The notes under the pieces: generated by a model | Told to the model about the DNA's origin: nothing | The model's database searches: none | What the model saw: only the letters and a program-made list of their open reading frames with translations | Part shown: piece by piece, positions 1-54,097 of the stretch | How the letters are laid out: every line of letters begins with the position of its first letter | Position numbering within the stretch: the stretch's first letter is position 1 | Origin: Dehalococcoidia bacterium | Lineage (GTDB): Bacteria; Chloroflexota; Dehalococcoidia; UBA2979 | Assembly (NCBI GenBank): GCA_964291495.2 | Contig: OZ219871.1 | Location: forward strand, 544,001 to 608,000 | Reading direction: 5' to 3' | Length of the DNA stretch: 64,000 bases | Program-made: the position numbers and the translations under genes

Positions 1-305
1 ATGGCGGCGTCGACCCCCAGCTCCTTGAAGCGCTGCGGCAGCGAGGCGAGAACCTCGCGCTCCTCGGCGCCGTGCGTGGTGCCGAACTCGCGCCAGCTCA
101 CGAAGCTGACGCCGGGATAGCGGGCCTCGAGCTGCGGCTCGAGCAGGTCGAAGACCTCGTCGCCGCGGTACACATAGTCCCAGAGCTGGGCGATCGTCTT
201 GCCGGCCAGCGTGTCCAGCCGCGGCGCGAGCGGCATCGGTTGGAGTTGCCGCTTGCTGCGCGGCCAGACCACCCGGTAGTGGCCGCCGTCGTTGCTGTTC
301 GTCAT
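1..305 (-). CDS. UGSC-family (seleno)protein-like, N-terminal part; runs off the left edge
   Basis: Not in the ORF track. Manual translation from ATG at 305 (RBS GAGGGAG) gives MTNSNDGGHYRVVWPRSKRQLQPMPLAPRLDTLAGKTIAQLWDYVYRGDEVFDLLEPQLEARYPGVSFVSWREFGTTHGAEEREVLASLPQRFKELGVDAAI, open to base 1. Family assignment is from recalled motifs (LAPRLDTLxGKTIxxLWD...FGxxHG...VDAxI). Confidence 0.7.
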   Translation of the reverse strand, partial: MTNSNDGGHYRVVWPRSKRQLQPMPLAPRLDTLAGKTIAQLWDYVYRGDEVFDLLEPQLEARYPGVSFVSWREFGTTHGAEEREVLASLPQRFKELGVDAA

Positions 306-5591: not shown

Positions 5592-6203
5592 CTACCCGCC
5601 GTTGCGCCGAGGCACCTCGAGCTGCTCCATCACCTGCTCGAAGACCGCGTACTCCTGCGCGCCGACCACGGCGTCGCGCTCGTTGAAGATGAACGTCGGC
5701 ACGCCGCGCACGCCGATCTCGCGCGCGAGCGCGATGCGTTCGTCCACCTGCGCGCGGTAGCGCCCCTCGCCCAGCACCGCGCGCAGCTCATCGCGATCGA
5801 GTCCCTGCTCCCCGCCGATCTCGATCAGCGTCTCGAGGTCCCCGATGTCCGCCTCGCCCTCGAAGTGCGCGGCGAAGAGCGCGCGGTGCAGGCCGTCGCC
5901 GTCGTGGCCGATCTCCTGCGCGTACTCGGCGGTCTCGAGGGCGAGGTGCGAGTTCGGCGTGAAGCGCCGTCCGCGGCGGAAGGTGATGCCGACGCGCTCG
6001 CCGCGCAGCTCCAACTGCGTCGGCGGGTCGTCCGGCTTCGTGCGCGGCTCGCGCTCACGGCCCTCGGGAGGGATCGAGGCGTCGAGCAGGTACGGCCACC
6101 AGCGGACCTCGAGCTCGTACTCGCGCCGCAGCTTCTCGACCTCCACGAGGCCGACGTAGCACCACGGTCAGATGAAGTCGCTGACGATGATCAGTGAGGT
6201 CAT
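5592..6203 (-). CDS. DsbA/FrnE-like thiol oxidoreductase, predicted selenoprotein (UPWC motif; TGA at 6170-6168 is codon 12)
   Basis: ATG ACC TCA CTG ATC ATC GTC AGC GAC TTC ATC TGA CCG TGG TGC TAC = MTSLIIVSDFI-U-PWCY, in frame with the downstream FrnE-like ORF (GVPTF, VGAQ); hairpin immediately downstream of the TGA. Confidence 0.88.
6124..6167 (-). promoter_or_regulatory. bacterial SECIS-like element
   Basis: mRNA stem UCGGCCUC / GAGGUCGA (8 pairs, one G-U; plus-strand 6136-6154) with a GUG apical loop starting 21 nt after the UGA. Confidence 0.72.
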
Positions 6204-6337
6204 GGCGGGCTGCCCTCGCCTTCCGGGCGCCGTGCCCTGCTCTCAGTATGACGCCTGCGCGCTCGCGCGGCAGCGCGACCGGCGGCGCTGCTACCATCCA
6301 CGCCCCCGCCGCCGCGGCACGAATGGAGCGAGGGCGC

Positions 6338-7273
6338 ATGAAGTTCGGGCTGTTCCTCATCGAGTCGCCGCACCGCGCGCACGTCGGGCCCAGCGGACGC
6401 CACGCCGAGCCCGGCCAGGGCGCCGCCCTGACCTCGCCCGAGTACCTCGGCGGCCTCGCGCGCTTCGCCGAGGAGGTCGGCTTCGACTTCGTCTCCTTCC
6501 CCGAGCACGTCGTGCTGCCCGTGGACTACGAGTCGCGCTACCCGTACCAGCAGTACGAGGGCGGCGACTTCAAGCGCTACCCCTACGACGAAACGGCGTT
6601 CCCCGAGCCGGTCACCGCCCTCACCTTCGTCGCCGCCGTCACCGAGCGGCTGGAGCTGGGCACCTCGGTGCTGATCCTGCCGCAGCGCAATCCGGTGATC
6701 CTCGCCAAGCAGCTCGCCACCCTCGATGCGCTCTCGCGCGGACGCGTCAGCCTGACCGTCGGCATCGGCTGGCTGCGCGAGGAGTTCGCGGCGATCGGGG
6801 TGCCCTGGGAGCGCCGCGCGCGGCGCGCCGACGAGTACATCCAGGCGCTGCGCACGCTCTGGCGCGACGAGGTATCGACGTTCCGGGGCGAGACGGTCTC
6901 CTTCGAGCGGATCCGCTGCCTCCCCAAGCCCGCGCAGCCGGACGGCCCGCCGATCATCGTCGGCGGGCACAGCCTCGGCGCGGCGCGGCGCGCGGGCCGC
7001 CTCGGCGACGGCTTCATGCCGCTCGGCCTTGGCGGATTCGGGGGCGAGGACGTCACGCCGCTGCTTGAGGCCTGGCGCGAGGCGGCAGCCGCCGCCGGAC
7101 GCGAGGAGGCGGCGACGGAGCTGCGCATGGGCGCCGCGCCCGACCTCGAATCGGTGCGGCGCGTCGCCGAGCGCGGCGCGACGAGGATCCACTTCTCGTT
7201 CTCGGCGCCGAGCCTCGACGAGGCGAAGCGCGAGCTGGAGCAGATCGCCAACGAGGTGATCGAGCGCTTCTAG
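6338..7273 (+). CDS. LLM-class F420-dependent oxidoreductase
   Basis: PEHVVLP...RYPY, LGTSVLILPQRNP, LDALSRGR, GIGWLREEF, PKP. Confidence 0.9.
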   Translation: MKFGLFLIESPHRAHVGPSGRHAEPGQGAALTSPEYLGGLARFAEEVGFDFVSFPEHVVLPVDYESRYPYQQYEGGDFKRYPYDETAFPEPVTALTFVAAVTERLELGTSVLILPQRNPVILAKQLATLDALSRGRVSLTVGIGWLREEFAAIGVPWERRARRADEYIQALRTLWRDEVSTFRGETVSFERIRCLPKPAQPDGPPIIVGGHSLGAARRAGRLGDGFMPLGLGGFGGEDVTPLLEAWREAAAAAGREEAATELRMGAAPDLESVRRVAERGATRIHFSFSAPSLDEAKRELEQIANEVIERF

Positions 7274-12519: not shown

Positions 12520-13398
12520 CTACGCGCCGCTGACGCCGAGCGGGCGCATCACCTCCTCCGCGAAGCGCTCGACGGCTTCGATCTTCGCCTCGACCGGCGA
12601 GTCCGCGCCGGCCGGCTCCCAGGCGGGGATGCGGATGCCATCGAGGCCGGCGCGGCCGAGCTCGTCCAGCACCTCGGCAGTGGGCCACTCGCGGGGCTGG
12701 ACGGTGATCTCGAAGTCCGCCGGGTCACGCCCGTTGCCCTCGAGGTAGCCGTGCAGCCGCGCGATGACGTCGGGCACAGCGGTCGTGGAGGCTCCCCCGC
12801 CGACCCAGCCGTCGGCGATGCGGGCGGCGCGGCGCAGCGCGATCTCGCTGCGGCCCCCGAGCACGATCGGGATCGGAGCGGGCGGGACGGGCGCCATCGA
12901 GACGGCGTCGAAGTCGAACCAGTCGCCGTGGTGCTCCACCCAGCCGCCGGCCCAGAGCCGCCGGAGCACCTCGATCATCTCGGCGAGCCGGCGGCCGCGG
13001 CCGGAGAAGGCCTGGCCTGTCTGGTCGAACTCCTCGCGACACCAGCCGGCTCCGAACCCGGCCACGACGCGCCCCTCGGTGAGCACGGCGGCGGTGGAGA
13101 TCGACTTGGCGACGGTGAAGAGGTCACGCGCGGGCGCGATGTAGACGGCGGTCATGCAGCGCAGCGTCGTGGTCGCCGCGCCGACCGCCGAGGCGAGCGC
13201 CCAGGGGTCGGGCCAGTGCGTCTCCGCGTCCCAGAACGGGACGCCATCGGCGGTGCCGGGGTAGGCGGGGGTGATCTCGCGGGGAAAGAAGAGGTGGTCG
13301 GGGATCGCGAGGCCCTCGAAGCCGAGGCGCTCGGAGGCACGCGCCAGCGGAAGCACCTGCTCGGTCGGCATGAAGCCGGTGAACTGCCAGAACCTCAC
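12520..13398 (-). CDS. LLM-class F420-dependent oxidoreductase
   Basis: PDHLFFP, WPDPW, GAGWCREEF, RRAARIADGW. Confidence 0.9.
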   Translation of the reverse strand: MRFWQFTGFMPTEQVLPLARASERLGFEGLAIPDHLFFPREITPAYPGTADGVPFWDAETHWPDPWALASAVGAATTTLRCMTAVYIAPARDLFTVAKSISTAAVLTEGRVVAGFGAGWCREEFDQTGQAFSGRGRRLAEMIEVLRRLWAGGWVEHHGDWFDFDAVSMAPVPPAPIPIVLGGRSEIALRRAARIADGWVGGGASTTAVPDVIARLHGYLEGNGRDPADFEITVQPREWPTAEVLDELGRAGLDGIRIPAWEPAGADSPVEAKIEAVERFAEEVMRPLGVSGA

Positions 13399-13459
13399 GA
13401 CGCCCTCCTCGACTGGACCGCGTTGCTCGCTACGATAGCGGCGAGGGAGGCACGTCGCG

Positions 13460-14518
13460 ATGCAATTCGGCTTCTGCTACATCCCGGACTACTACCCGGA
13501 GCTGCACGGCGAGTTCCGCGACTGGTACGAGCGGCTGCTCTCCGAGTGGGCCTGGGCCGACGAACTCGGCTACGACTCGGTCTGGATCGCCGAGCACCGC
13601 TATCCGGGCTACGCCTTCTCCTCGACACCGGTCGTATTGCAGGCGATGGCCGATCGCACCACGCAGATTCGCATCGGCACCGCCGTGGCGCTGATCACCC
13701 AGCGGCACCCGGTGCTGAGCGCCGAGCACTGGGCGGCGGTCGACGTGCTCTCCGGCGGACGGCTCAACTTCGGCATCGGCCGCGGCATCTCGGAGTACGA
13801 CTTCGAGACCGTCGGCGTGCCCTCGGAGGAGTCGCGCGAGCGCTTCGAGGAGGCGTGGGAGGTGATCCGCCGGCTCTGGACCGAGGACGAGGTGGTGCAT
13901 AACGGCAAGTACTGGTCGTTCGACGTGCACACGCTGCGGCCGCGCCCGCTACAGCAGCCGATGCCGCCGATCTACGTCTCCGCGCTGGCGTCGCCGGAGA
14001 CGTACCGCTGGGCCGGGCGCAACGGCTACCACCTGCTGGTCGCGCCGTTCCTCCTCGACTCCAACGAGCGGCAGCGCGGCTTCCTCGAGATCTATCGCGA
14101 GGAGCTGGCCAACGCCGGGCACGATCCCGACGCGTTCGAGGTCCTCGGGACGTACCACCTGAGCATCGTCGAGCGGGAGAGCCAGCTCGAGGGGGCGGAC
14201 CAGTACTTCTACAACTACCTCAACTTCATCCAGAACACCGGGAAGGAACGAACCGGCGTGAAGGAGGCCCTGGCCGGAGAGGCCAACCGCGCCTACCAGA
14301 CCGGGGAGGGCCTCTACAAGGACGTCGAAGCAATGCGCAGGCAGCGTACGGTGATCGGCACGCCGCAGCAGTGCATCGAGCGCATGTCGGAGCTGGCCGA
14401 GGCGTGCGGCCTCACCGGGTGGTCATTCGAGATCAGCTACGGCGGGATGCCCGCCGAGATGACCAGGGACCAGATGCAGCTCTTCGCCGAGGAGGTCATC
14501 CCCGTCCTGCGCCCCTAG
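13460..14518 (+). CDS. LLM-class flavin-dependent oxidoreductase
   Basis: WIAEHRY, IRIGTAV, DVLSGGRLNFGIGRG, PRPLQQP. Confidence 0.92.
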   Translation: MQFGFCYIPDYYPELHGEFRDWYERLLSEWAWADELGYDSVWIAEHRYPGYAFSSTPVVLQAMADRTTQIRIGTAVALITQRHPVLSAEHWAAVDVLSGGRLNFGIGRGISEYDFETVGVPSEESRERFEEAWEVIRRLWTEDEVVHNGKYWSFDVHTLRPRPLQQPMPPIYVSALASPETYRWAGRNGYHLLVAPFLLDSNERQRGFLEIYREELANAGHDPDAFEVLGTYHLSIVERESQLEGADQYFYNYLNFIQNTGKERTGVKEALAGEANRAYQTGEGLYKDVEAMRRQRTVIGTPQQCIERMSELAEACGLTGWSFEISYGGMPAEMTRDQMQLFAEEVIPVLRP

Positions 14519-16444: not shown

Positions 16445-17752
16445 CTATCGCTCCTCGGGGACGACGCCGGCGCGGGTGATCAGGTCCTTGCTGAGCGCCT
16501 GGAAGGAATCGGGCTCCAGCTCGTCCACGTCGGCCTTCCCGGACTCGACGACCTCGCGCTTGAACGGCTCGAAGCTAGGGATCTCGTCGTCGGCGAGCGG
16601 CTGCATCCACTGCTTGCGCTCGAGCGCGGCCTCGATGTACGGGGCGAGCTCCTCCTGCTTGCGCGCGACGCGCTCGTCCTCCGCCTCGGACCTGAACTCT
16701 GGCATGACCTCCTCGGCGAAGAGGCGGAGCGAGTCGCAGATCTCCTCGTGCGTCACGCGCCCCGCCTGCGCGCCCAGCATCACCTGGTCGGCGCCGGCCT
16801 GGATCAGCAGGCGGATCGTCTCGCGCGCCTCGTCGGGCGTGCCGACGCAACTCGGGCGGCGCCGCGTGTGCTCGGCCTCGAGGCGCTCACGCGAGTCCTC
16901 GAAGATGTTCCAGAGGTTGGTGCGGCCGGGCGTGTGGCGGCCCGCAACGTAGAAGTGCGCGACGCCGGTGCTGAAGAACAGCCGGTTCGGCAGCGCGCGC
17001 TCGAAGGCCGCGTCGCCGTCGTGATCGAGGACGAGTGGCTCGGCGATCGCGAAGTTGGCGTTGACGAAATGGCCGATCGGGACGCACTCGGTCTTGATCG
17101 CGTCGTAGTAGTCGTCGATCCAGGCGCCGACCTCGCCGGGCGGGAGGAAGGAGAAGCAGAGCACGCCGAGGCCGAGCCGGCCGGCGAGCTTGACCGCCTC
17201 GCGGTTGGAGCAGGCCATCCACATCGGCGGGTGCGGCCGCTGCACGGCCTTCGGGACCACGTTGCGGCAGGGCATCGAGAAGTACTCGCCCTCGTAGCCG
17301 GGGTAGGGGTCGAGCGCGAGCATGTTCGCGGCCTGCTCGGTGGTCTCGAGCCACATCGCCCGCTTGTCCTCGAGCGGCACGCCGTAGCCCTCGAGCTCGC
17401 TGCGCGAGGCGGTCTCGCCGGTGCCGAACTCGACGCGGCCGCCCGAGACGAGGTCGAGCGTGGCAATGCGCTCGGCGACGCGGGCGGGGTGGTTGTAGCC
17501 GGGCGGCATCGCCACGATGCCGTGGCCGAGGCGGATGCGCTTCGTGTTGCGCGCCGCCGCGGCGAGCACGATCTCGGGCGCGGAGGAGTGCGAGTACTCC
17601 TCGAGGAAGTGGTGCTCGACCTCCCAGACGTAGTCGATGCCGAGCTCGTCGGCGAACTCGATCTGCTCGATGGTGTTCTGGAACAGCTGCTGCTCGCTGC
17701 CCGGGGTCCACGGTCGCGGGTGCTGGATCTCGAGGAACATGCCGAACTTCAT
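16445..17752 (-). CDS. LLM-class flavin-dependent oxidoreductase
   Basis: WEVEHHFLEEYSHSSAPE, RLGHGI, DLVSGGRVEFGTG, QRPHPP. Confidence 0.92.
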   Translation of the reverse strand: MKFGMFLEIQHPRPWTPGSEQQLFQNTIEQIEFADELGIDYVWEVEHHFLEEYSHSSAPEIVLAAAARNTKRIRLGHGIVAMPPGYNHPARVAERIATLDLVSGGRVEFGTGETASRSELEGYGVPLEDKRAMWLETTEQAANMLALDPYPGYEGEYFSMPCRNVVPKAVQRPHPPMWMACSNREAVKLAGRLGLGVLCFSFLPPGEVGAWIDDYYDAIKTECVPIGHFVNANFAIAEPLVLDHDGDAAFERALPNRLFFSTGVAHFYVAGRHTPGRTNLWNIFEDSRERLEAEHTRRRPSCVGTPDEARETIRLLIQAGADQVMLGAQAGRVTHEEICDSLRLFAEEVMPEFRSEAEDERVARKQEELAPYIEAALERKQWMQPLADDEIPSFEPFKREVVESGKADVDELEPDSFQALSKDLITRAGVVPEER

Positions 17753-17800
17753 CGCTCGCTCCGTTCCGGTTCGCGCGCGAGGGCAAGTATAGGGTCGGCC

Positions 17801-18607
17801 TCAGCTAGGTTCGCCCAGGAAGTCCTCCGCGGCGTCCCGCGGGAGGTGGCCCAGCACCTGCGTGCTGTGACTGAAGTCGCGGAAGCGCCAGCGATTGTTG
17901 GAGATGCCGAAGAAGACGTCGAAGCGCACCTCCTCGGGCGCCTCGATGCTGCGCACGATCAGGTCCGTGACGTCACGATGGCTGACGAAGATCGCCTGGT
18001 TCCACGGGTCGTCCTCGCGAGGCCGGCCGCTCGCCGGGCAACCGCCGATGCGCAGGCAGATGATCGAGAGCTCGGTCGTCTCCACGTACATGCGCGCGAG
18101 GTCCTCGCCGAACAGCTTGGAGACGCCGTAGAGGTTGTTGGGCCTCGGCTCGTCGCTGGTCCGCAGCATCCGCCACTCCGAGGGCACGCGGTCGTATTCG
18201 CCTCGGGTGATCTCGCGGTAGGGCGACGACTTCTGGTAGCCGCCCATCGTCGCGCCGCTCGATGCGAAGACGACGCGCCGCACCCCCGCCCGCAGCGAGG
18301 CCTCGAAAACGTTGCGCGTACCGCCGATGTTGTTGCGCAGGATCTCCTCCCACGGCGCCTGGAACATCCCGAGCGGCGAGTTCACCCCGCCGTAGGCGGC
18401 GAGGTGCACGACCGTGTCGACGCCCTCGAAGGCCGGTTCGATCTCCTCCAGCACCGCGATGTCGGCGCGGATGTTCCGCTCCGCGGGCAGGTCCTCGACG
18501 CCGCCGCGCGAGAGCGCGACGACCTCGTAACGCTCCTCGAGGGCGGGGCGGATCGCCGCGCCGACCGCGCCGCCGAGCCCCGTGACGAGCACGCGCCGTT
18601 GGTCCAT
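17801..18607 (-). CDS. NAD-dependent epimerase/dehydrogenase (uronate dehydrogenase-like)
   Basis: VLVTGLGGAVG, VHLAA, VFASS, YGVSK; ATG at 18607. Confidence 0.88.
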   Translation of the reverse strand: MDQRRVLVTGLGGAVGAAIRPALEERYEVVALSRGGVEDLPAERNIRADIAVLEEIEPAFEGVDTVVHLAAYGGVNSPLGMFQAPWEEILRNNIGGTRNVFEASLRAGVRRVVFASSGATMGGYQKSSPYREITRGEYDRVPSEWRMLRTSDEPRPNNLYGVSKLFGEDLARMYVETTELSIICLRIGGCPASGRPREDDPWNQAIFVSHRDVTDLIVRSIEAPEEVRFDVFFGISNNRWRFRDFSHSTQVLGHLPRDAAEDFLGEPS

Positions 18608-21593: not shown

Positions 21594-23353
21594 TCACTGG
21601 CTGTAGCCCGAGGCAGGCGCCAGCCCCCCGGCGGCCGCCGTGAGCCGCTCCAGCAGGAAGCGGAAGTCCTGGTACGCCTGGATCGCGCCGAGCCGCTCCT
21701 CCAGCACATCGGATTCGTCGAGCAGCGCCAGCAGGTCGGAGTGAATGCCGCGGACATCGACCTCGGCGTTCTCGACCTGCGGCGAGAGGGCGCTGTAGCG
21801 GTCGGCGGCGAGGCCGACGATGGCACCCAGCCGGAAGTAGCGGTCGGCGGCGTCGAATGGCGCATTGGCCCGCCCCGCCACGTCCGTCCGCTGGCCCAGC
21901 GTCACGCCGGAGACCGGCTCGACCCAGCGCACCTCGACCTCGCCCAGCACCGCCGCGCGGGAGCGCGCCTCGTTGCTCAGGAACAGCTCGTAGAAGACCG
22001 TCGTCGCTGCGCCCGAGGGCAGCTCGGCGAACTCCTTGCGGTTCTGCTCGAAGGTGTGGTCCGGCGTGATGCGGTTCTCGTAGCCGATGATGCGCCAGGC
22101 CTCCACCTGCCCCGGATCCCACGTCACCTGCGCGCGCGCCTGGTCGGCGAACGGCGTAGACAGCGCCAGCCAGTTCTCGCGGCTGAACGTCGCCCGCGCC
22201 TGCGCGGTGTCGTCGAGGTAGCGGTACCAGCCGTTGCCATGCTGCGCGAGCTGCTCCAGCAGGTAGTCGTTGTAGTTCTCGATCCCGACGCCGATCGTGA
22301 TCAGGCGCAGCGGGTTCCGGCTGTCGTAGTCGGGGCCGACTCGAGGATGACGAAGGGGTTGGTGGCGTCCACGTTCGCGACGCCGTCCGACATCAGGATG
22401 ACGTAGTTGAAGGCCTCGGGCCGCTCGCTACGGGCGGCATCGGCGAGCCGCACGCCGAGGTTGAGCCCGGCCTGGACGTTCGTGCTGCCGTGCGGCTCGA
22501 GCCGCTCGATCGAGCGCACGACCGCGCCGTCGTCGGGGCGGCGGTGCTCGACGGTGAGCGAGCCGATCACGTCGGTGGTGAAGTGCACGACGGCGATGCG
22601 GTCGCGGGAGCCGAGGCTGCGGCGGATCGTTTCCGCCGCCTCGCGCGCGATGGCGACGCGGTTGCCCTCGCGCATCGAGCCGGAGGCGTCCAGCACCAGC
22701 GTCACGTTGAGGGGCGTGTTGTCCGGCACCCGGGGCGCCTGCAGGCCGATGCGGGCGATGTGCCGGCCGCCGCCCAGCGGGTGCTCGAAGACATCGGTCG
22801 TGATCGCGAAGCTGCGATCGTCCGGCGGTGCGCCGTAGTTGTAGGCGAAGGCGTTGATCCACTCCTCCGCGCGCACCGAGTCGGGCTGCACCTCGAAGCC
22901 GTTGCGCGCCCAGGTCAGAGCGAGGAAGTAGGACGTGCGGTCCGTGTCGAGGCTGAAGGTGGAGACGGCGTCCGTCGACGAGTCGACGAACGGCGTGCGC
23001 CCGTAGTTCCTGAAGGTCGTCTCCCGCGGCGCCGGCTGCTGCGCCGCCGGCGTGGCCGGGGCCGCCTGCGGGGCCGGCGTCGGCGCGCCGACCGGCCGCG
23101 CGCGGGCGGCTGTCGGGGTGGCGCGCGCTGGCGCGGCAGCCGGCGCCTCGGTCGCGCGGATGACGGGAAACGCCGTGGCTGTCGCCGCAGCGGGCGCGGC
23201 GGTCGGCGCTGCAGTCGGCGCGGCGGTCGCGGCCGGGCGGGGCGCGGGCGCCTCGTCGTCGTCGTCATCGCTGCAGCCGACGACCGCGAGGCCGAGGACC
23301 GCGATCGCGGCGATCGGGGCGAGGATCCGGAGCAGGCTCAGTGGTAGTCGCAT
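21594..23353 (-). pseudogene. YfbK-like VWA-domain lipoprotein with a 1-nt frameshift near 22332-22335 (pseudogene or sequence error)
   Basis: Signal LAVVGC, Pro/Ala/Thr stalk, STFSLDTDRTSY, VRAEEWIN, DASGSM MIDAS. Aligned to the paralogue, GAG TCG GCC CC- GAC TAC lacks one base; restoring it joins ORFs 22301..23359 and 21594..22127. Confidence 0.85.
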
Positions 23354-23371
23354 CTTCAACCTCCCAAGGCT

Positions 23372-23410
23372 CTTACAGGAGGTACGCGCGTGATCGCCGG
23401 ATGGTTCCCT
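23372..23410 (-). promoter_or_regulatory. predicted ECF-sigma promoter (GGAAC-N17-CGTA)
   Basis: AGGGAACCATCCGGCGATCACGCGCGTACCTCCTGTAAG; aligns without gaps to the sequence upstream of the sigma gene. Confidence 0.7.
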
Positions 23411-23456
23411 GTCGCGCCGCGCGGGCTCCGCACCGATCGCCGAGTCCGCAAGTCAG

Positions 23457-23526: not shown

Positions 23527-25674
23527 TCAGCGGCTGTAGCCCGAGGACGGCGCCAGCTCCGCGGCGGCCACCGTGAGCTGCTCGAGCAGGAAGCGGAAGT
23601 CCACGTACGCCTCGAGCGAGCCGAGCACGCCAGCGAGGCCGCCAAGCTCCGTGCCGAGGGCCGCGAGGTCGGCGTGGATGCCAGCGTAGTCGACCTCCGC
23701 GCCCTCGACCTGGGGTGAGAGCGCGCTGTAGCGGTCGGCGGCGAGGCCGACGATCGCGCCGAGGCGCAGGTAGTCGTCGCCGCCGCCGAAGGAGAGCCCG
23801 GTGTGGCCGGAGACGCTGGCGCTCTGGCTGCGCGAGGCCCCGGAGGCCGGGTCGACCCAGCGCAGCTCCACGCTGCCGAGCGTGCCGGAGCGGTCGCGCG
23901 CGCCCTCGTGCAGGACCAGCTCGTAGAAGACCGTCGTGGAGGCGCCGGAGGGCAGCTCGGCGAACTCCTTGCGGTCCTGCTCGAAGGTGTGGTCCGGCGT
24001 GATGCGGTTCTCGTAGCCGACGATGCGCCAGGCCCGCACGAGCGCGGGGTCCCATCTCACCTGCGCGCGGGTCTGGTCGGCGAAGGGGGTGGAGAGCGCC
24101 AGCCAGTTCTCCCGGCTGAACGTCTCCCGCGCCTGCGTGGTGTCGTCGAGGTAGCGGTACCACCCGTTGCCGTGCTGGGCGAGCTGCTCCAGCAGGTAGT
24201 CGTTGTAGTTCTCGATCCCGACGCCGATCGTGATCAGGCGCAGCGGGTTGGTGCTGTCCGTGTCCGCGGCGGACTCGAGGATGGCGAACGGGTTGGTCGC
24301 GTCCACGTTCGCGACGCCGTCCGACATCAGGATGATGTAGTTGAACGCCTCCGGCCGATCGCGCCGCGCCGCATCGGCAAGCCGCACGCCGAGGTTCAGC
24401 CCCGCCTGGACGTTCGTGTTGTAGTGCGGCATCAGGTTCCCGATCGACCACGCCACGTTCGGGTCGTCGGGAGCCGCGTGCTCAACCGTGTAGGCGTCGA
24501 TGACCGCGTTCGTGAAGTGGACGACGGCGATGCGATCGCGCGCGCCGAGGCTCTGGCGGATCGTCTCCGCCGCCTCGCGCGCGATGGCGACGCGGTTCCC
24601 CCAGTCCATCGAGCCGGACGCGTCCAGCACCAGCGTGACGTTCAGCGGCGTGTCGTCACGCACGTGGGGCGCCTGGAAGGCAACGCGGGCGAGGTGCCGG
24701 TCGCCCTCGAGCGGGTGCGCCACCACGTCGCTGGTGATGGCGAAGCTCCGGTCGTCGCCCGGCGCCGCGTAGCCGTAGTCGAAGGCGTTGATCCACTCCT
24801 CCGCACGCACGGAGTCGGGGTCCACGGTGTAGCCGTTCCGCGCCCACGTCAGCGCGAGGAAGTAGGACGTGCGGTCCGTGTCCAGGCTGAACGTGGAGAC
24901 GGCATCGGTGGACGTGTCCGTGAACGGCGTACGGCCGTAGTCCTGGAAGGTCGTGGCCGGGGGCTGCTGAGGGGACGCCGCTGATTCGTCGGGCATGCCG
25001 GGCTCGCCGGCAGCGTCGGCCATGCTGGGGCCGTCGGCGGCATCGGCGGCAGGCGTTTCGGCCTTCGGCTCGGCGGTGGGAGCCGCTACGACGGCGGGCG
25101 TCGGCGTTGCCGTGGCGGGCGCGGCCGTAGGGGTGGGCGCAGCCGTCGGTGCGGCTGTCGCGACCGGTGTCGCGGTTTGCCTGGGCGCGGCCGTGGGGGC
25201 CTGCGTCGGCGCGGGGCTGGGGCGCGGCGGCGCCCCCTGAGGCGTGGCGCGAGGCGCGAGGGGCGCCGGCGTGGCAGCCGCCGCCTCGGTCGCCCGGATC
25301 ACTGGAAACGCGGTGGCAGTGGCGGGCGCAGCGGTCGGCGCGGGTGTCGCCCCCGACGACGTGGCGGCAGGAGCCGCGATTGGCGCGATCCCGCCATCGC
25401 CGCCACCACCGAGGTTACCGGCGAGGGCCCAGACCCCGATCGTGACTGCCACGACCACCACGGCCGTTGCCGCCGCCGCCGGGACCCAGTCCCGCGTCGC
25501 CGTGAACGCCATCGCGCGACGCCAGAAGGCGAAGCGTGGTTCCTGCTGTTCCCCCAGGCGCCCCTCCAGGCGATCCCAGAGGTCGTCGGGCGCGCGCAGC
25601 TCTCGAGCCTCCTCGGAGAAGTGCTCGCGGAGGCGGCGCTCCAGCTCGTTGTCGGGTGAGTCGTTACGCGCCAT
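23527..25674 (-). CDS. membrane-anchored YfbK-like VWA protein with an anti-sigma-like N-terminus
   Basis: N-terminal LERRLREHF...APDDLWDRLE, one TM segment, PTA-rich linker, VWA (DASGSM, TN, SDG), C-terminal YENR...AELPSG; start overlaps the sigma gene end. Confidence 0.85.
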   Translation of the reverse strand: MARNDSPDNELERRLREHFSEEARELRAPDDLWDRLEGRLGEQQEPRFAFWRRAMAFTATRDWVPAAAATAVVVVAVTIGVWALAGNLGGGGDGGIAPIAAPAATSSGATPAPTAAPATATAFPVIRATEAAAATPAPLAPRATPQGAPPRPSPAPTQAPTAAPRQTATPVATAAPTAAPTPTAAPATATPTPAVVAAPTAEPKAETPAADAADGPSMADAAGEPGMPDESAASPQQPPATTFQDYGRTPFTDTSTDAVSTFSLDTDRTSYFLALTWARNGYTVDPDSVRAEEWINAFDYGYAAPGDDRSFAITSDVVAHPLEGDRHLARVAFQAPHVRDDTPLNVTLVLDASGSMDWGNRVAIAREAAETIRQSLGARDRIAVVHFTNAVIDAYTVEHAAPDDPNVAWSIGNLMPHYNTNVQAGLNLGVRLADAARRDRPEAFNYIILMSDGVANVDATNPFAILESAADTDSTNPLRLITIGVGIENYNDYLLEQLAQHGNGWYRYLDDTTQARETFSRENWLALSTPFADQTRAQVRWDPALVRAWRIVGYENRITPDHTFEQDRKEFAELPSGASTTVFYELVLHEGARDRSGTLGSVELRWVDPASGASRSQSASVSGHTGLSFGGGDDYLRLGAIVGLAADRYSALSPQVEGAEVDYAGIHADLAALGTELGGLAGVLGSLEAYVDFRFLLEQLTVAAAELAPSSGYSR

Positions 25675-26221
25675 TGCCTGCGACCTCCATCCCGCCGGAC
25701 TGCTCCAGCAGCTCGCGCATGTGGCGGAGCGCTCTGTGGAGCCGGGACTTGACCGTGCCCTCGCGCACGCCGGCGGACTGCGCTACCTGCGCCACCGTGA
25801 GGTCGGCGAAGTAGCGCAGCACCACCACCTGGCGGTGCTCGGGACTGAGCTGGGCGAGCGCGTGCCGCACGGCCTCGCGGTCTTCGCTCGCCTCGATTGC
25901 TTCGTGTTGGCTGGATGGCGTGCCGAGCGGGATCGACTCCTCGAGGGGGACCGTCGCGAGCGCGCGCTTGCGTTGCTGGGAGCGCACGGCGTTGACGAGG
26001 ATGCGCATCAGCCAGGGCTTGAACGCACTGCCGCGCCGGAAGGTGCGGATGCCGCGCCAGGCCAGCAGGAACGCATCCTGGACGTGCTCTTCGGCCTGGG
26101 CGGCGTTGCCTGTCATGAGGTAGGCGGTGCCGAAGAGCGGGCCCTTGTACTGCTCGACCAGGTGGCGGAAGGCCTCGCGATCCCCGTCCTGGCAGCGCAG
26201 GACGGCCTCGTCGTCGGTCAT
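25664..26221 (-). CDS. ECF RNA polymerase sigma factor (alternative start 26290)
   Basis: GDREAFRHLVEQY, AEEHVQDAF, FKPWLMRI, LSPEHRQVVVLRY, GTVKSRLHRA. Confidence 0.93.
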   Translation of the reverse strand: MTDDEAVLRCQDGDREAFRHLVEQYKGPLFGTAYLMTGNAAQAEEHVQDAFLLAWRGIRTFRRGSAFKPWLMRILVNAVRSQQRKRALATVPLEESIPLGTPSSQHEAIEASEDREAVRHALAQLSPEHRQVVVLRYFADLTVAQVAQSAGVREGTVKSRLHRALRHMRELLEQSGGMEVAGNGA

Positions 26222-39416: not shown

Positions 39417-39502
39417 GGCGCAACTCCTCGGAGTATCGTGGCGGGCAAGCCTAGCACGACCGATCCGGGGTGCTGCCGACCGAGGGGCGGGAGGTTCGGG
39501 GC

Positions 39503-40636
39503 ATGAAGTTCGCGGCGTTCACGACCGTGGCCGGTTCCGCCGGTGAGGCCACCACCTCCGAACAGCTGATCGCCAACCTCAGACAGCAGACCGTCCTCGC
39601 CGAGGAGCTCGGCTTCGAGGCGATGTGGCTCGGCGAGCACCACTTCGGGCCGTACGCCGTGGGCGACCTGCCGAACCCGATCCTGCTCGGTGCGGACCTC
39701 GCGGCGCGGACCTCGCGGATTCGCATCGGCCAGATGGCGAACATCGCGCCGTGGTGGCACCCGATCCGGCTCGCCGAGGACCTCGCGATCCTCGACAACC
39801 TGACCGGCGGGCGCGTGGAGGTTGGCTTTGGCCGGGGAGTCTGGCCGTACGAGGGGCCGCAGTTCCATCCGAACGCGGACCCTCGCAAGGATGCGGAGAA
39901 CCGCGAGCTGTTCCGGGAGACGGTCGAGATCGTGCGCGAGATCTGGACCAACGAGTACTTCTCCTACCGTGGCGCGAACTACAGCTTCCCCGCCGACGAC
40001 ACCGTCTTCTCCCATCCGCTGTATCCGCCGAACCCCGCCTGGCAGGACGGGGAACGGGTCACCAAGCTGCGAGTGACCCCGCGGCCCTACCAGCAACCCC
40101 ACCCGCCGCTCTGGATGACCGTCTCCACGGACAGGTCCGTGGCGACCGCGGCCGAACTCGGGCTCAAGGCCTGCTACTGGCAGCCTCCCGCACTGAGGAT
40201 CAGGGAACGAATGGAGATCTACGCACGGGTCAGGACGAAGCGGGAGGGCAGACCGTTCGCCGTAGGCGAAGATCAAGCGGTGATGCGCTCGATGTACGTC
40301 GCCTCCTCGATGGAAGAGGCGCGTCGCGATGCCGAAGACGGCATCATGTCCGCCTTCATCTTCAACGACCCCTTTCGAGGCAGGCAGGTCTTCACCAACC
40401 CCGGCGAGGTCCTCGGCGATGATGTGAAGCTCGACTGGGACTTCCTGGAACCACGCAGCCTGCTCGTCGGATCCCCGGATGACGTGGTAGCGAAGATCGA
40501 GGAGCTACGGGAGGTCTGCCACCTCGACTACCTGCTCGTCGAGTTCTCGCACATGGGCCTTCCCTTGCGAAAGTCGCTGAAGAACCTCGAGGCCTTCGCC
40601 ACCAGGGTGATGCCGCGATTCGCCGGCGGCGGCTGA
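39503..40636 (+). CDS. LLM-class flavin-dependent oxidoreductase
   Basis: WLGEHHF, HPIRLAED, GGRVEVGFGRG, PRPYQQPHPP. Confidence 0.92.
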   Translation: MKFAAFTTVAGSAGEATTSEQLIANLRQQTVLAEELGFEAMWLGEHHFGPYAVGDLPNPILLGADLAARTSRIRIGQMANIAPWWHPIRLAEDLAILDNLTGGRVEVGFGRGVWPYEGPQFHPNADPRKDAENRELFRETVEIVREIWTNEYFSYRGANYSFPADDTVFSHPLYPPNPAWQDGERVTKLRVTPRPYQQPHPPLWMTVSTDRSVATAAELGLKACYWQPPALRIRERMEIYARVRTKREGRPFAVGEDQAVMRSMYVASSMEEARRDAEDGIMSAFIFNDPFRGRQVFTNPGEVLGDDVKLDWDFLEPRSLLVGSPDDVVAKIEELREVCHLDYLLVEFSHMGLPLRKSLKNLEAFATRVMPRFAGGG

Positions 40637-43366: not shown

Positions 43367-44566
43367 CTAGCCTTCCGGCTCGGGCGAGCGGCCTCGCGGC
43401 CGCAGCGCGTCCGGCACCTCGATGCCCGCGTCGACGAAGGCCTGGCGCTGTGCGGCGCGCACCGGGCGGAACAGCGTGCGATGCCCCTCGCGCGCCCACT
43501 CGAGGCTGTCCTCGAAAGGCTGCGCCTGGCCCTGGAAGCGCGGCATCACGTGGCGGGCGAACAGCTCGTAGCTGCGCCGCATCCGCCCGGTCGTGCGCGC
43601 CCACTCGCGGTGGTTGATGAGTATGCCGCCCACGCCGCCGGAAGCCTCGAGGACCTCCTCGATGGCGGCAACCGCGTCCTCCGGCGTGCCGATCGCCACG
43701 CCGGGCTGCTTCGCGAGCCAGTCGACGCTGTCGCGCCCGCCCTCGAAGCGGATGCCCAGCGTGCCGAAGTAGCCGCGGTTGAGCGCGAGCACGCCCTCGC
43801 GGATGTCCTCGAGCGCCTCTTCGCGGGAGTCGGCGAGGTGCATGGTCATGGTGACGCGCCAGTTGCGGCGATCGATCTGCCGGCCGTGGCGCTCGGCCTC
43901 CTCGCCGGCCCACGTCCAGGCCTGGGCCATCGTCCCGAGGCCGCCGGCCAGCTCGGAGGAGGCGACGGAGAGCATCCCCAGGCCGTGGCGCCCGGCCGCC
44001 TGCGCGCCGGCGGGCGAGGTGGCGTGCGCGACAAAGACCGGGACGTGCGGCTGCTGGTAGGAGGCCATCTGCAACCGCGCGTCGCGCAGCTCGTACCACT
44101 CGGTCTGCTCCGTCACCACCTCGCCGCGCAGCAGGCGCATGATCGCGTCGAGCGCCTCGCCCATCCGCCGCCGCTGCGTCGTCGGCTCGATGCCCAGCTG
44201 GTAGGCGTCGGAGTAGAGCGCGCCCGGGCCGACGCCGAAGTTGATGCGCCCTCGCGTCAGGTGGTCGAGCTGGACCATGCGATGGGCGAGGGTGAAGGGG
44301 TGGTGGTAAGGCAGGCTGACCACGCCCGTGCCGAGGCGGATGCGCCTCGTACGCTGCGCCGCGGCCGCGATGAACAGCGCCGGGTCACCGACCGTCTCCC
44401 AGCCGGCGCTGTGATGCTCCCCGATCCAGGCCTCGTCGAAGTTGAGGCGGTCGAGGAGCTCGATCACCTCCATGTCACGCTCGTAGGCGACCGTCGGGTG
44501 CTCGCCGGGCTCGTGGAACGGCTGGGCGAAGATCCCGAACTTCAGCGGCTCGCTTCGATCGGCCAT
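43367..44566 (-). CDS. LLM-class monooxygenase (LimB-like)
   Basis: PFH, WIGEHHSAGWE, LGTGVVSLPYHHP, LDHLTRGR, GPGAL. Confidence 0.9.
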   Translation of the reverse strand: MADRSEPLKFGIFAQPFHEPGEHPTVAYERDMEVIELLDRLNFDEAWIGEHHSAGWETVGDPALFIAAAAQRTRRIRLGTGVVSLPYHHPFTLAHRMVQLDHLTRGRINFGVGPGALYSDAYQLGIEPTTQRRRMGEALDAIMRLLRGEVVTEQTEWYELRDARLQMASYQQPHVPVFVAHATSPAGAQAAGRHGLGMLSVASSELAGGLGTMAQAWTWAGEEAERHGRQIDRRNWRVTMTMHLADSREEALEDIREGVLALNRGYFGTLGIRFEGGRDSVDWLAKQPGVAIGTPEDAVAAIEEVLEASGGVGGILINHREWARTTGRMRRSYELFARHVMPRFQGQAQPFEDSLEWAREGHRTLFRPVRAAQRQAFVDAGIEVPDALRPRGRSPEPEG

Positions 44567-44594
44567 CGGCCGGCGCTCGCTTTCCTCGGGGCCC

Positions 44595-45713
44595 TCAGAG
44601 CAGGTCGCCGAGCTGCTTCGGATGCGGGTAGGGGTGCCGGAAGTAGACGCGCTCGGAGAAGACCTCGGGCGCACCCGCCAGCAGCTCGTCCCAGGCGGCG
44701 AGCAGCCGGTCCTCGCCCTCGTAGTCGAAGTCGCTCGCCTTCATGTTGTTGCCCCGGCCGTCCACCGTCGGCGGATGCTCGAGCCACCATTCGACGGTCG
44801 TCCGCACCCAGTCCTGCGGCCGCACGGCGTCCCGATAGCCGAGGTCGCCGCGCACGCCGCGCAGCTTGGCGTTGCTCATCAGCCGGTGGAACGGCTGCCC
44901 GCTGAGCGGCACGAACGTCCGCCCGGGCGGCGCGATGCTCCACGGGATCTCGACGAACTCGAACTCGTACCCAAGGACTCCGGCGATCAACTCGACCCAC
45001 TGCTGCGCCGTGAACTGCACGTCATCGGCGAGGTGGTAGATCTGCCCGGCCGAGCGCTCGGGCTGGTCGATCGCCAGGCCGATCGCGTGGCCGACGTTCT
45101 CCGAGGCGCAGCGCGTGCTCAGCGTCAGACCGCCGCCCTGGATGATGAAGCGCTTCCGATCGTCGAGGACTCGCTTGATGATCCGCCACTCGCTCGACAC
45201 GATGCTGTGCGGGCCATAGACGTACGGATAGCGGAAGTGCGTCGCCTCGTAGTGCCCGGCCGCGTGGCGATCCATGACGGCGCGCTCGGTCTCGATCATG
45301 CGATCGACGAAGGCGTCGACGCCGTCGTCCTCCAGCTCGTTCTCCTCGAACCCCGGAGTCAGCACCGGGCCGTCGTGCTCGGCGTTGTGGGGATCGCGGA
45401 CGTGCATCCAACCCTTCATGACGGGGAAGCCGCCAATCGTGATCAGGCGCGGCGTCTTGCCCTCGAGGGCCCCCGCCAGGTGGCGGATGCGGCCGTACGT
45501 CGCCACGACCAGGTCGAAGCTGCGGCCCGCGAGGTCGCGGGCGATCGTCTCCTCGAAGTGCGGCTCGCCGTGAATGTGCTCGAGGTCGTCCGGGAGGGAG
45601 TCGGCCTCGTGCAGCCCGCGGTGGTAGAGCGTCACGTCGTAGCCGCGGTCGAGCAGCCGCCGAACGACCGGAGGGCCGGTGGCTGCCGTGCCGCCGATGA
45701 CGAGTGCGCGCAT
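44595..45713 (-). CDS. NAD-dependent epimerase/dehydratase family protein
   Basis: ALVIGGTAATG, YHRG, FRYPYVYGP. Confidence 0.82.
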   Translation of the reverse strand: MRALVIGGTAATGPPVVRRLLDRGYDVTLYHRGLHEADSLPDDLEHIHGEPHFEETIARDLAGRSFDLVVATYGRIRHLAGALEGKTPRLITIGGFPVMKGWMHVRDPHNAEHDGPVLTPGFEENELEDDGVDAFVDRMIETERAVMDRHAAGHYEATHFRYPYVYGPHSIVSSEWRIIKRVLDDRKRFIIQGGGLTLSTRCASENVGHAIGLAIDQPERSAGQIYHLADDVQFTAQQWVELIAGVLGYEFEFVEIPWSIAPPGRTFVPLSGQPFHRLMSNAKLRGVRGDLGYRDAVRPQDWVRTTVEWWLEHPPTVDGRGNNMKASDFDYEGEDRLLAAWDELLAGAPEVFSERVYFRHPYPHPKQLGDLL

Positions 45714-46733: not shown

Positions 46734-46775
46734 CGGCTCGTACCCGCGGCACAAGCGCGAGCGGAGGACGCGCCG

Positions 46776-49073
46776 ATGAGTCCTGACCGCCGTGGACCGT
46801 CGTGGCTGGCGGGGGTCGCGGCGGGCCTCGTGGCGCTGGCGCTGCTCGCGGCCGGGTGCAGCTCGGATGACGCCCCGCCTCCCACGTCGACGCCTTCCGC
46901 GGCGGCCACGCCGCAGCCCACGACGACCCCCGCCGCCACACCCGCGCAAGCGGCGGAGGAAGCCCGGCCCGCCGACCCGACCGACGCCTACTTCGACCTC
47001 GAGCACGTACTGAACATCGCGATCGAGATCGCGCCCGAGGACTGGGACACGCTGCGCCATCAGGCCCGCACCCTCGAGGATCTGCTGGCCGAGATCGCCG
47101 AATACGGGCTCTCCCGGCCGTTCGCCGACATCTACACCTGGTTCCCGGCCACCGTGACGGTGGACGGCGAGGCGTACGCCGAGGTCGGCGTGCGGAAGAA
47201 GGGGTTCATCGGCTCCCAGAGCGACACGCGGCCCTCGCTCAAACTCCGCTTCGACAAGTACGTGGACGGCCTGGCGCTGGGCGGGGTCATGGAGCGCATG
47301 ACGCTGAACAACGGCCTCCAGGACCCCTCGCTGATTAACACCTGCCTGGCCCACCAGGTGTTCGCCGCCGCGGGGGTGCCCACTCCCCGGTGCAGCTTCG
47401 CGACCGTCTCGGTGAACGGGAGGAACCTCGGCCTCTACATCCACGTCGAGGAGATCAAGCCTCCCTTCCTCGCACGCCATTTCGCGAGCACAGAGGGCAA
47501 CCTCTACGAGGGCACGGTCAGCGACTTCACCCCCGAGTACCGCGGCACCATCGAGAAGAAGTCCAACGAGGACGAAGACGACTGGTCGGACATCGACGCC
47601 GTGGTCGCCGCGCTGCAAGACCCCTCCGAGGCCGGGCTGGCAGCGCTGGCCGAGATCGTCGACCTGGATCGCTTCCTCACGTTCTGGGCGCTGGAGGTGC
47701 TGGTGGGCCACTGGGACGGCTACACGGGCAACCGCAACAACTACCGCTTCTACCGGGAGCCGGGAGGCCGCTTCGTGTTCATGCCCTGGGGCGTGGACGC
47801 GGCGTTCCACCTGGAGGACGATCCCAACCCGTTCGACAACATCAGCGATCCCCCGCCCTCGGTGCTGGCCCTCACGGCCATCCCCAGCCGGCTCTACGGC
47901 GACGAGGAGTGGCGAGGGCGCTACGTCGCCCGCCTCAAGGAGCTGCTCGACAGCGTCTGGAACGAGGACGAGTTGCTGGGAAGCGTCGACGAGCTGGCGG
48001 CGATCGTCCGGCAGCACGCGCTGCCGGAGCAGCGGCCGGCCGCCGCTGCCGACGCCGAGCGGGTGCGCCAGTTCATCCTGAAGCGCCGTGCCGAGATCCT
48101 GGACGACCTGACGCCGCAGCCTCCGGAGTGGCCCGCTCCGGATCAGGCCGTCGCGGCCTCGGACGGACTCGAGCCCGGCACGGTCGAGGTGCGCTTCGAG
48201 ACGAATTGGGGAAGCAACAAGAGTCTCGATCCGCTCTCGGAGGGCGAGATCTCCTACCTCTCGGTGGACGGGGAGGAGCTGCCCGGCGACGAGCTGGGAG
48301 TGGTCGTCGGTCACGCCAGCTCGGAGGAGACGGCGGGGTTCGGCATCGGGGATGCGGCCTCGCTCGCCGTCATCAGCGTGCAGCCCGACGGCTCCGTGGA
48401 GGGCCTCACCGTCGTGCTGCCCATCGCGCGGCTGACGAGCGGGAGCACGCTGACCATCGGCGAGGACCGGATCGCGGGAGGCGTGTGGTCCATCCCGGCC
48501 GGAGGCTCGACCGTCGACAGCTTCACGCCGTTCAGCGCGGGCGTGCTGACGCTGTCGGAGGCGAGCGCCGAGGCGGGCGCGACGGTCTCCGGCAGCTTCT
48601 CCGGCGTCTTAGGCGGCATCCCCCCTCCCCTGCCGCCGGAGGACGAGGCAAGCACCCGCGCGGCTGCGAGTGATGCCGGCCTCGTGATCAACGAGATCGC
48701 CGCGCAGGGAGATCCGTTCGACTGGTTCGAGCTCTACAACTCGTCCGACTCCCACCTCGCCCTCGCCAACTTCGTCGTGGCCGACGACCTGTTGGACGCC
48801 GGCAAGCGGGTCGCATTCCCCTCGGAGCTGGTGATCCCGCCGGGCGGGTACCTCCAGGTGCAGCTCGACAAGGACGGCTGGCCGGGCTTCGCCCTCGGCA
48901 GGGACGAGGAGCTGGGCATCTGGACGGCCGACGGCGTGCTGGTCGCCGAGGTCGACTGGGACGAGGGCCAGGCCGACGAAGGCACGAGCTACGCCCGGGT
49001 GCCGGACGGCCGTGGTGAGTTCCAGACCGTGAGCACTCCCACCCCCGGCGCCGCGAATCAGCCCAAGGACTGA
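46776..49073 (+). CDS. CotH kinase-family lipoprotein with a C-terminal lamin-tail-like domain
   Basis: LLAAGC lipobox; VGVRKKG, LNN..QDPS, VNG..LGLY..VE, WDGY..NRNNY, PWGVD; C-terminal LVINE...DWFELYN...SYARVPDG...TPG. Confidence 0.85.
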   Translation: MSPDRRGPSWLAGVAAGLVALALLAAGCSSDDAPPPTSTPSAAATPQPTTTPAATPAQAAEEARPADPTDAYFDLEHVLNIAIEIAPEDWDTLRHQARTLEDLLAEIAEYGLSRPFADIYTWFPATVTVDGEAYAEVGVRKKGFIGSQSDTRPSLKLRFDKYVDGLALGGVMERMTLNNGLQDPSLINTCLAHQVFAAAGVPTPRCSFATVSVNGRNLGLYIHVEEIKPPFLARHFASTEGNLYEGTVSDFTPEYRGTIEKKSNEDEDDWSDIDAVVAALQDPSEAGLAALAEIVDLDRFLTFWALEVLVGHWDGYTGNRNNYRFYREPGGRFVFMPWGVDAAFHLEDDPNPFDNISDPPPSVLALTAIPSRLYGDEEWRGRYVARLKELLDSVWNEDELLGSVDELAAIVRQHALPEQRPAAAADAERVRQFILKRRAEILDDLTPQPPEWPAPDQAVAASDGLEPGTVEVRFETNWGSNKSLDPLSEGEISYLSVDGEELPGDELGVVVGHASSEETAGFGIGDAASLAVISVQPDGSVEGLTVVLPIARLTSGSTLTIGEDRIAGGVWSIPAGGSTVDSFTPFSAGVLTLSEASAEAGATVSGSFSGVLGGIPPPLPPEDEASTRAAASDAGLVINEIAAQGDPFDWFELYNSSDSHLALANFVVADDLLDAGKRVAFPSELVIPPGGYLQVQLDKDGWPGFALGRDEELGIWTADGVLVAEVDWDEGQADEGTSYARVPDGRGEFQTVSTPTPGAANQPKD

Positions 49074-49190
49074 GCGCCCGCGGGCCGGGCCGGGTCGGCG
49101 ACGGGTCGGCGAGCCCGAGACGCGGCGTCCGCGCCGTCACGAGGCCTATACTGCCCCGGCGCGGCGAGCCGGAGCAGCCCGGGAGGCACT

Positions 49191-53283: not shown

Positions 53284-53407
53284 GGCAGCCTCCTCGCGAG
53301 CTCCGCCCGGACACGATAGCCGCACCTCCGCCCGGGCCGCCATCCCGGTATCGCTGCTATAGGCTTGGCGGCGAACTGCCGGGCTGCAACGACGCGAGGA
53401 GGACACC

Positions 53408-54097
53408 GTGACCGCATTCGTGCTCATCCACGGCGCATACCAGGGTGGCTGGATCTGGGCCTCCGTCGCCGCCCGGCTGCACGCCGAGGGCCACGTCGCG
53501 CACGCGCCGTCGCTGGACGGCTGCGGCGAGCGGGCGCCACAGATGCGGCCCGGCATCACCACCGAGTCGCAGGCCGAAGAGATCGCGCAGCTGCTCTTCC
53601 ACGAGGACCTCAGCGACGTCGTCCTCGTCGGTACCTCGTCGGGCGGGATGGTCGTCGCGAGGACGGCCGAGCTGGCACGCGAGCGGGTGGCGCGCCTCGT
53701 CTTCGTCGACGCGCTCGTCCTCAAGCCCGGCGAGACCATCGGCGACATCGTGAACCGGCCGAGGGCGATCGACACCGACGTGGCGACCGGCCGGCCGGCC
53801 GAGGAACGGCTCGCGGACCTGCTGCGCGATCTTCCGCGTGATAGCGCCGAGTGGGCCGCCGAGCGCTTCGGTTTGCACCCCGCCGCGGCATTCAGCCGGC
53901 CAGTCGAGCTCGACTCGTTCTGGGACCAGGACTGGGACGCCTCGGTTGTCTGGTGCCGGCGTGCCCCGAATCCCGGCGAGGCGCACCAGCGCCGCTGCGC
54001 CGAGGCGCTCGGCGCGCGCTGGCACGAGCTCGACACCGGCCACTACCCGATGCTCAGCGAGCCGGAGGCGCTGACACGACTCATCCTCGAGGGCTGA
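53408..54097 (+). CDS. alpha/beta hydrolase, copy A
   Basis: VLIHGAYQGGW, GTSSGG, DTGHYPM. Confidence 0.88.
   Translation: MTAFVLIHGAYQGGWIWASVAARLHAEGHVAHAPSLDGCGERAPQMRPGITTESQAEEIAQLLFHEDLSDVVLVGTSSGGMVVARTAELARERVARLVFVDALVLKPGETIGDIVNRPRAIDTDVATGRPAEERLADLLRDLPRDSAEWAAERFGLHPAAAFSRPVELDSFWDQDWDASVVWCRRAPNPGEAHQRRCAEALGARWHELDTGHYPMLSEPEALTRLILEG

Follow-up and report, generated by a model that had tools for sequence, protein, structure and literature searches.

Within a 64,000-nucleotide stretch of Dehalococcoidia DNA, which we refer to as the window, the minus strand carries at 5592..6203 a gene for a DsbA/FrnE-like protein of 203 residues in which an in-frame TGA occupies the first position of the redox motif. 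We consider it highly probable that this is a real but mis-annotated gene, and that it encodes a small disulfide oxidoreductase of the cytoplasm, with selenocysteine (Sec) taking the place of the catalytic cysteine. The evidence is drawn from the reading frame, from the family and fold of the read-through product, and from the joint conservation of the TGA and a short hairpin immediately downstream of it.

The frame opens at ATG 6203-6201 and extends for 203 codons to the TAG at 5594-5592; when TGA is translated as U, its sole interruption is the TGA at 6170-6168. Read along the minus strand, MTSLIIVSDFI is followed by this TGA and then by PWCYVGLVEVEK..., and the residues after the TGA read PWCYVGLVEVEKLRRE... 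with no further stop until the TAG. The TGA (6168..6170) would specify Sec12, the first residue of a U-P-W-C motif, and the TGC at 6159..6161 encodes Cys15, the putative resolving cysteine, which is the only cysteine in the protein and lies in a column that is invariant in Sec and Cys forms alike. A putative ribosome-binding site, GAGGG (6212..6216), was read from the sequence 8 nt upstream of the ATG. In the mechanical list of open reading frames the gene begins instead at the GTG at 6146 and is 184 residues long, and because it is started there the list misses the active site; the first 19 residues, including the entire redox motif, are lost in this way by standard gene callers. A prior sequence-only reading of this region had noted both that the listed frame from 6146 lacks the active site and that a frame from ATG 6203 places a TGA directly ahead of P-W-C. 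The ORF list and the translation bear out both points, and all of its statements about the sequence are correct.

The read-through product matches the Pfam DSBA family (PF01323) over residues 4-191 of 203, with an E value of 1e-30 and a score of 107.4 bits (cut-off 25.6). The closest solved structure by sequence is that of Deinococcus radiodurans FrnE (5cnw/5cp1; E 2.6e-16, identity approximately 26-30%), and in the alignment to 5cnw the UGA stands opposite the first cysteine of the FrnE CPWC motif. An AlphaFold model built on a 50-sequence alignment has a mean pLDDT of 95.2 and a pTM of 0.90; in this model a strand (residues 2-8) and a helix (residues 13-28) flank residue 12. The best fold matches in the PDB are FrnE structures (TM 0.78-0.84), followed by SCO1869, the cytosolic reductase DsbM and YjbH, with periplasmic DsbAs ranked far lower. 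All 50 aligned sequences have P169 and F171, and T170 reaches at least 90% conservation. Pro169 (codon at 5697..5699) lies in a G-V-P-T-F loop and, from the fold, would be the cis-proline typical of thioredoxin-fold proteins. Since strand β1 starts at residue 2 and the active site is reached at residue 12, a signal peptide could not be accommodated, and the model therefore points to a cytoplasmic location. With no cysteine other than Cys15 in the protein, a U12/C15 selenenylsulfide would form the redox centre. None of the NCBIfam selenoprotein models fits the protein; the best, Rcas_1661_fam_Se, scores 44.7 bits against a cut-off of 190.

Comparison with characterised relatives places the protein closest to cytoplasmic members of the fold. 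Like D. radiodurans FrnE, a cytoplasmic disulfide oxidoreductase of known structure (PDB 5cnw, 5cp1 and 5xwh), it carries its CPWC-type motif where helix 1 begins and lacks a signal peptide. FrnE, in contrast, carries cysteine at the first position, is 260 residues long, and aligns only over chain residues 16-208, beyond which it has a C-terminal extension with further cysteine (a C239S mutant is named in the title of 5cp1); the window protein, with 203 residues and a single cysteine, lacks this extension. The thioredoxin fold, its inserted helical domain and the CxxC-type motif are shared, at weaker fold-match level, with periplasmic DsbA of E. coli. The DsbA motif of E. coli is C-P-H-C, whereas the window protein has U/C-P-W-C, is without a signal peptide, and is much nearer the cytoplasmic FrnE/DsbM/YjbH group.

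The sequence-only reading had also stated that thioredoxin-fold selenoproteins with a UxxC motif are known, and this holds: in the available excerpts of the literature, DsbA-like UxxC proteins (COG2761) were described in 2005 as a selenoprotein family new at the time, found in the Sargasso Sea metagenome and comprising nine sequences with predicted SECIS elements (PMC1088965). Excerpts of later work record DsbA-like selenoproteins in 41 organisms in a 2016 survey (PMC5029168) and, in a 2026 review, an entry for "DsbA-like protein form 1, PF01323, UxxC", among proteins whose functions are largely uncharacterised (PMC13188914). On its sequence features the gene belongs to this known form 1 family, with which it shares the PF01323 domain, a UxxC motif with Sec in place of the first cysteine, and a SECIS-like hairpin just downstream within the coding sequence. 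The published examples were compared by description rather than by sequence. The present clade differs from them in being made up of Chloroflexota/Dehalococcoidia-type metagenome-assembled genomes, in having a majority of Sec forms (64 of the 79 loci scored among the best 80 of 528), and in its nearly invariant 19-nt hairpin. A literature search joining "FrnE" with "selenocysteine" returned no relevant paper.

To place the TGA in a comparative setting, species-representative genomes were scanned with an alignment of the family, which yielded 528 confirmed relatives; the best 80 loci, 1.32 Mb in total, were retained, and as one of these ends before the motif, 79 were scored. The closest loci (L001, L002, L003 and L010) are 93-94% identical to the window protein, and the genome from which the window comes is not among the 80. 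By their record titles, nearly all of these best 80 of 528 loci derive from Chloroflexota groups, mostly Dehalococcoidia, and two (L013 and L032) from other phyla. At the first codon of x-P-W-C, 64 of the 79 loci have TGA, 12 have TGC and 3 have TGT. An alignment of the kind proposed in the sequence-only reading thus pairs 64 TGA with 15 TGC/TGT codons at a single position among the best 80 of 528 loci, and its placement of the TGA at the first cysteine of the CPWC motif agrees with FrnE (5cnw), with the 15 Cys-form loci and with 30 full-length database homologues. Among the 65 Sec forms, that is, the window and the 64 TGA loci, S5 and D6 upstream of the UGA are invariant and F7 is nearly so, and downstream of it P, W, C and Y are invariant; the conservation of S5, D6 and F7 is equal in Sec and Cys forms.

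Immediately 3' of the UGA, the transcript can form a compact hairpin (6136..6154, minus strand). A 13-nt spacer (6167-6155) is followed by the 5' arm UCGGCCUC (6154-6147), the loop GUG (6146-6144) and the 3' arm GAGGUCGA (6143-6136), so that the loop lies 21 nt from the UGA. Sequence and folding both confirm the 8-bp stem and the GUG loop 21 nt past the UGA that had been pointed out from the sequence. Considered as a single sequence the hairpin is not significant: the folding energy of the 66-nt stretch is -25.8 kcal/mol, that of shuffled sequences -24.2 +/- 2.9 kcal/mol (z = -0.54), and 48 of 200 shuffles fold equally well or better. Because the single-sequence fold is non-significant in DNA of 70% G+C, the case for the element rests on comparison.

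The comparison was made on an ungapped alignment of the 65 Sec forms, which include 64 distinct sequences. Stem pairs are formed in 98.6% of the cells of this alignment: all eight pairs are present in 58 of the Sec forms and seven in the other 7, in which only the closing pair is open. The 15 Cys forms, by contrast, mostly retain 4-6 pairs (12 sequences), with 7 pairs in two (L060 and L073) and all 8 in one (L041). Every one of the 65 Sec forms has G as the first loop base (GUN in 61, GGN in 4). Hairpin energy averages -11.1 kcal/mol in the Sec forms, the weakest being -8.6 kcal/mol, versus -4.8 kcal/mol in the Cys forms. Where the stem of the Sec forms does change, C-G is replaced by U-A in 2 sequences and U-A by U-G in 5, with single cases of G-C to G-U and of U-A to U-G.

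The synonymous sites beneath the stem are nearly frozen in the TGA forms, and this is a stronger argument than covariation. Third-position entropy in the stem codons of the Sec forms is 0.00 at V/I/L14, 0.20 at G15, 0.53 at L16, 0.00 at E18 and 0.11 at V19, compared in the same sequences with a gene mean of 1.20, a value of 1.35 at another invariant glycine, and 1.51 at the third base of the loop codon, which is free to vary. Entropy at these stem codons rises to 0.84-1.69 among the 15 Cys forms, whose encoded residues vary there as well. Formal covariation is thin: just one pair undergoes a double change, seen in 2 sequences. As many pairs with double changes arise in 66 of 500 shuffles, and the covariation score is reached by 4 of 500. 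The argument is carried by conservation and by the contrast between Sec and Cys forms. An extended lower stem in the minimum-free-energy fold, which takes in the UGA itself, was considered and rejected as part of the element; it is paired in 71.9% of cells and shows no double change.

The available excerpt of PMC13188914 gives limits for bacterial SECIS elements of a 3-9 nt loop, a 4-16 bp stem, a spacing of 16-37 nt, a minimum free energy of no more than -7.5 kcal/mol, and a G within the first two positions of the loop. The core hairpin falls within all of these, with a loop of 3 nt, a stem of 8 bp, G as the first loop nucleotide, a distance of 21 nt and an energy of approximately -11 kcal/mol. 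The proposal that the hairpin is a bacterial SECIS element is thus upheld, as it lies inside the published limits and is conserved only where the codon is TGA. Opening the closing pair would give a 5-nt loop, C-G-U-G-G, that fits the N1-G-[G|U]-N-N2 pattern of the same consensus, the bSECIS model of Zhang and Gladyshev. Searches of the window against Rfam returned no family at gathering level and no SECIS family, and at E <= 10 the segment 6050-6260 gave only a chance miRNA match (E 9.8). The fdhF SECIS element of E. coli contains a bulged U; the window hairpin differs from it in being very short and without a bulged U, and a conserved lower stem is unsupported here.

The use of UGA elsewhere in the window bears on how this codon is read. 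In DNA this rich in G+C (70%), TGA is usually the commonest stop. Among 47 Pfam-backed ORFs of the window, 23 end in TAG, 17 in TGA and 7 in TAA; since TGA terminates 17 of these 47 other genes, recoding would be specific to the site. A composition-aware scan of the window for in-frame TGAs with coding-like flanks found three sites, one of which is the DsbA TGA. Of the remaining two, the TGA at 17801-17803 was judged to be an ordinary gene end and that at 1408-1410 an antisense artefact, both by inspection only. The genes for Sec synthesis and insertion were sought in the window and in the related loci. ARAGORN found no tRNA in the 64-kb window and no tRNA-Sec among the 8 tRNAs in the 80 related loci; no SelA-, SelB- or SelD-like ORF was found in the window by Pfam searches of 50 ORFs and tblastn with the E. 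coli K-12 proteins, and tblastn with E. coli K-12 SelA, SelB and SelD found no sel genes in the 1.32 Mb of related loci. A weak SelB match in L067 was identified by NCBIfam as TypA/BipA.

A sign of Sec use in the lineage that is independent of the DsbA-like gene comes from the edge of the window. Positions 1..305 on the minus strand encode, from an ATG at 305, the N-terminal part of a UGSC-family protein (Pfam UGSC, PF24696; 30.1 bits, cut-off 25); the edge of the window truncates the gene a few codons short of the UGSC U. Orthologues in L001, L003, L004 and L010 read ...GVDAAISGMGC-TGA-GSCTP..., remain open for 581 codons and end in TGA, and those in L001 and L010 lie at the syntenic distance. 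All four have a strong hairpin after this TGA; in L001, L004 and L010 it lies about 17 nt past the TGA, has an energy of approximately -32 kcal/mol and carries the loop CGUGAU, whereas the predicted apical fold of L003 differs. The L010 read-through product matches NCBIfam NF041046 with an E value of 3.4e-13, below the model's cut-off. The gene at 1-305, which lies 5.3 kb from the DsbA-like gene, probably encodes another selenoprotein, and proteins containing UGSC are an established selenoprotein family in the available excerpts of a survey (PMC5029168) and a review (PMC13188914).

Three other accounts of the TGA were weighed. The best placed of them, which we nevertheless regard as very improbable, is that the UGA is recoded with a residue other than Sec. 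Insertion of cysteine by means of a Sec-like tRNA and a SelB-like factor has been reported in some bacteria, and a general reassignment of UGA is another option; the sequence data do not identify the inserted residue, and selA and selD were not seen in the window. General reassignment is, however, excluded by the 17 of 47 window ORFs and the UGSC orthologues that end in TGA, and the position, the UxxC motif and the hairpin all match the published DsbA-like selenoprotein family. Dehalococcoidia are, moreover, reported to be rich in selenoproteins, with two genomes listed with 49 and 46 selenoproteins in the BSepDB excerpt available (PMC13326102). The available part of PMC5424206 contains nothing on a UGA-to-cysteine route in this class.

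Fainter still is the prospect that the gene is a pseudogene or the product of a sequencing error, in which a nonsense change converted TGC or TGT to TGA in a Cys-type DsbA-like gene. TGA is one substitution away from either cysteine codon, Cys forms do occur in the family (15 of the 79 loci scored among the best 80 of 528), and the Sec machinery was not seen in the window. Yet the same TGA is found in 64 different species-level genomes with the frame intact on both sides, and it is always accompanied by the conserved hairpin that the Cys forms lack, a pattern that independent mutations or errors would not yield. The view taken from the sequence alone, that the gene is not a pseudogene, is thereby sustained.

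We give as little credence to the possibility that the true product is a 184-residue DsbA-fold protein without a redox motif, started at GTG 6146 behind an untranslated leader of 57 nt: ORF callers predict it and 90 of the 120 database homologues listed are recorded in this form, but the codons ahead of the GTG show conservation at the protein level (VVSDF-I/V-U-PWCY) and correspond to strand β1 and the CxxC loop, the GTG itself falls within a stable hairpin's loop and has no ribosome-binding site of its own, and the Cys-form homologues are always full length. The GTG at 6144..6146 would instead be Val20 of the selenoprotein and, at the same time, the SECIS loop. Of the 120 protein matches listed, 30 have an N-terminal CPWC and 90 are N-terminally short and lack it; among the matches listed, 74 of the 90 short homologues begin at the codon equivalent to GTG 6146. 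Because so many of the truncated homologues listed share this start, mis-annotation of the start site is evidently systematic, a stop-codon artefact repeated across databases.

With Sec as the preferred reading, the expression and function of the gene can be outlined. The UGA at 6168-6170 would be decoded as selenocysteine, giving a 203-residue thiol-disulfide oxidoreductase of the COG2761 type with the active site U12-P-W-C15. Following the E. coli paradigm, on which this step is proposed, the 19-nt hairpin within the V-G-L-V-E-V-E coding sequence would bring SelB-GTP-Sec-tRNA(Sec) to the ribosome ahead of any action of release factor 2 at the UGA. Sec12, predicted to lie in the loop between strand β1 and helix α1, would occupy the position of the nucleophilic cysteine of thioredoxin-fold enzymes and would react there with disulfides of the substrate or with mixed disulfides before pairing with Cys15 in a selenenylsulfide. 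In the G-L-V-E-V-E segment of helix 1, codon choice and amino acid sequence alike may be dictated by the SECIS stem.

The distribution of Sec and Cys forms was examined on a tree of 80 proteins, calculated with a quick IQ-TREE run from which no rows were dropped and in which the motif and the hairpin-encoded residues were left out. The window protein belongs to a group of 7 Sec forms that is well supported. Across the tree the two kinds of protein are intermingled, and 8 changes between Sec and Cys are required, of which at least 4 are forced by well-supported branches. Because all Sec forms share one homologous hairpin, we infer that most of the sampled clade descends from a Sec form and that Cys was acquired by repeated replacement, a direction of change read from an unrooted tree. 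We are evenly divided on the broader proposal that Sec may be both ancestral and prevailing in this FrnE-like, Dehalococcoidia-type clade (64/79), maintained by one homologous 19-nt SECIS element, and that the Cys forms represent at least four secondary replacements after which the hairpin decayed. Locus L041 (6551-6628) is a Cys form with TGC that retains a complete 8-bp stem, with AGU in place of GUN as its loop. Its appearance is that of a recent replacement of Sec by Cys, ahead of SECIS decay, and L060 and L073 likewise look like recent replacements.

If this history is correct, the clade offers a natural series in which the rate of SECIS erosion after the loss of Sec, and the benefit of Sec to a cytoplasmic disulfide oxidoreductase, could be studied. 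In practical terms, annotators of these abundant uncultured Chloroflexota are missing a redox enzyme together with evidence of the lineage's dependence on selenium. The main use of the present analysis is as a correction to annotation and as a clean comparative example of a SECIS element in coding sequence; the case is ordinary in kind. It adds a well-sampled clade to a selenoprotein family of uncharacterised function, with a SECIS element simple enough for direct mutational tests.

The surroundings of the gene were also surveyed. No conserved partner gene recurs beside the DsbA-like gene in more than 16 of 80 sources (79 loci and the window), ORF picking being noisy in DNA of high G+C content. 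Eight luciferase-like monooxygenase ORFs are present in the 64 kb (6191-7270, 12523-14515, 16448-17800, 39455-40633, 43370-44740, 49074-50342 and 52174-54042), accompanied by family III CoA-transferases, enoyl-CoA hydratases and thiolase-like genes in a dense, paralogous set of oxidative and CoA-dependent catabolic functions. On the minus strand at 21597-23452, overlapping ORFs in different frames encode a YfbK_C domain (21597-22427) and a vWF_A/VWA domain (22304-23452); the two in combination look like the intact three-domain paralogue beside them (23530-25782), and a frameshift, a split gene or a faulty assembly may account for the pair. On the plus strand, the ORF at 46734-49070 joins a CotH kinase domain with a lamin-tail domain, and that at 61495-63021 encodes a 509-residue protein composed almost wholly of eukaryotic-type leucine-rich repeats (Pfam LRR_8, LRR_4 and LRR_1).
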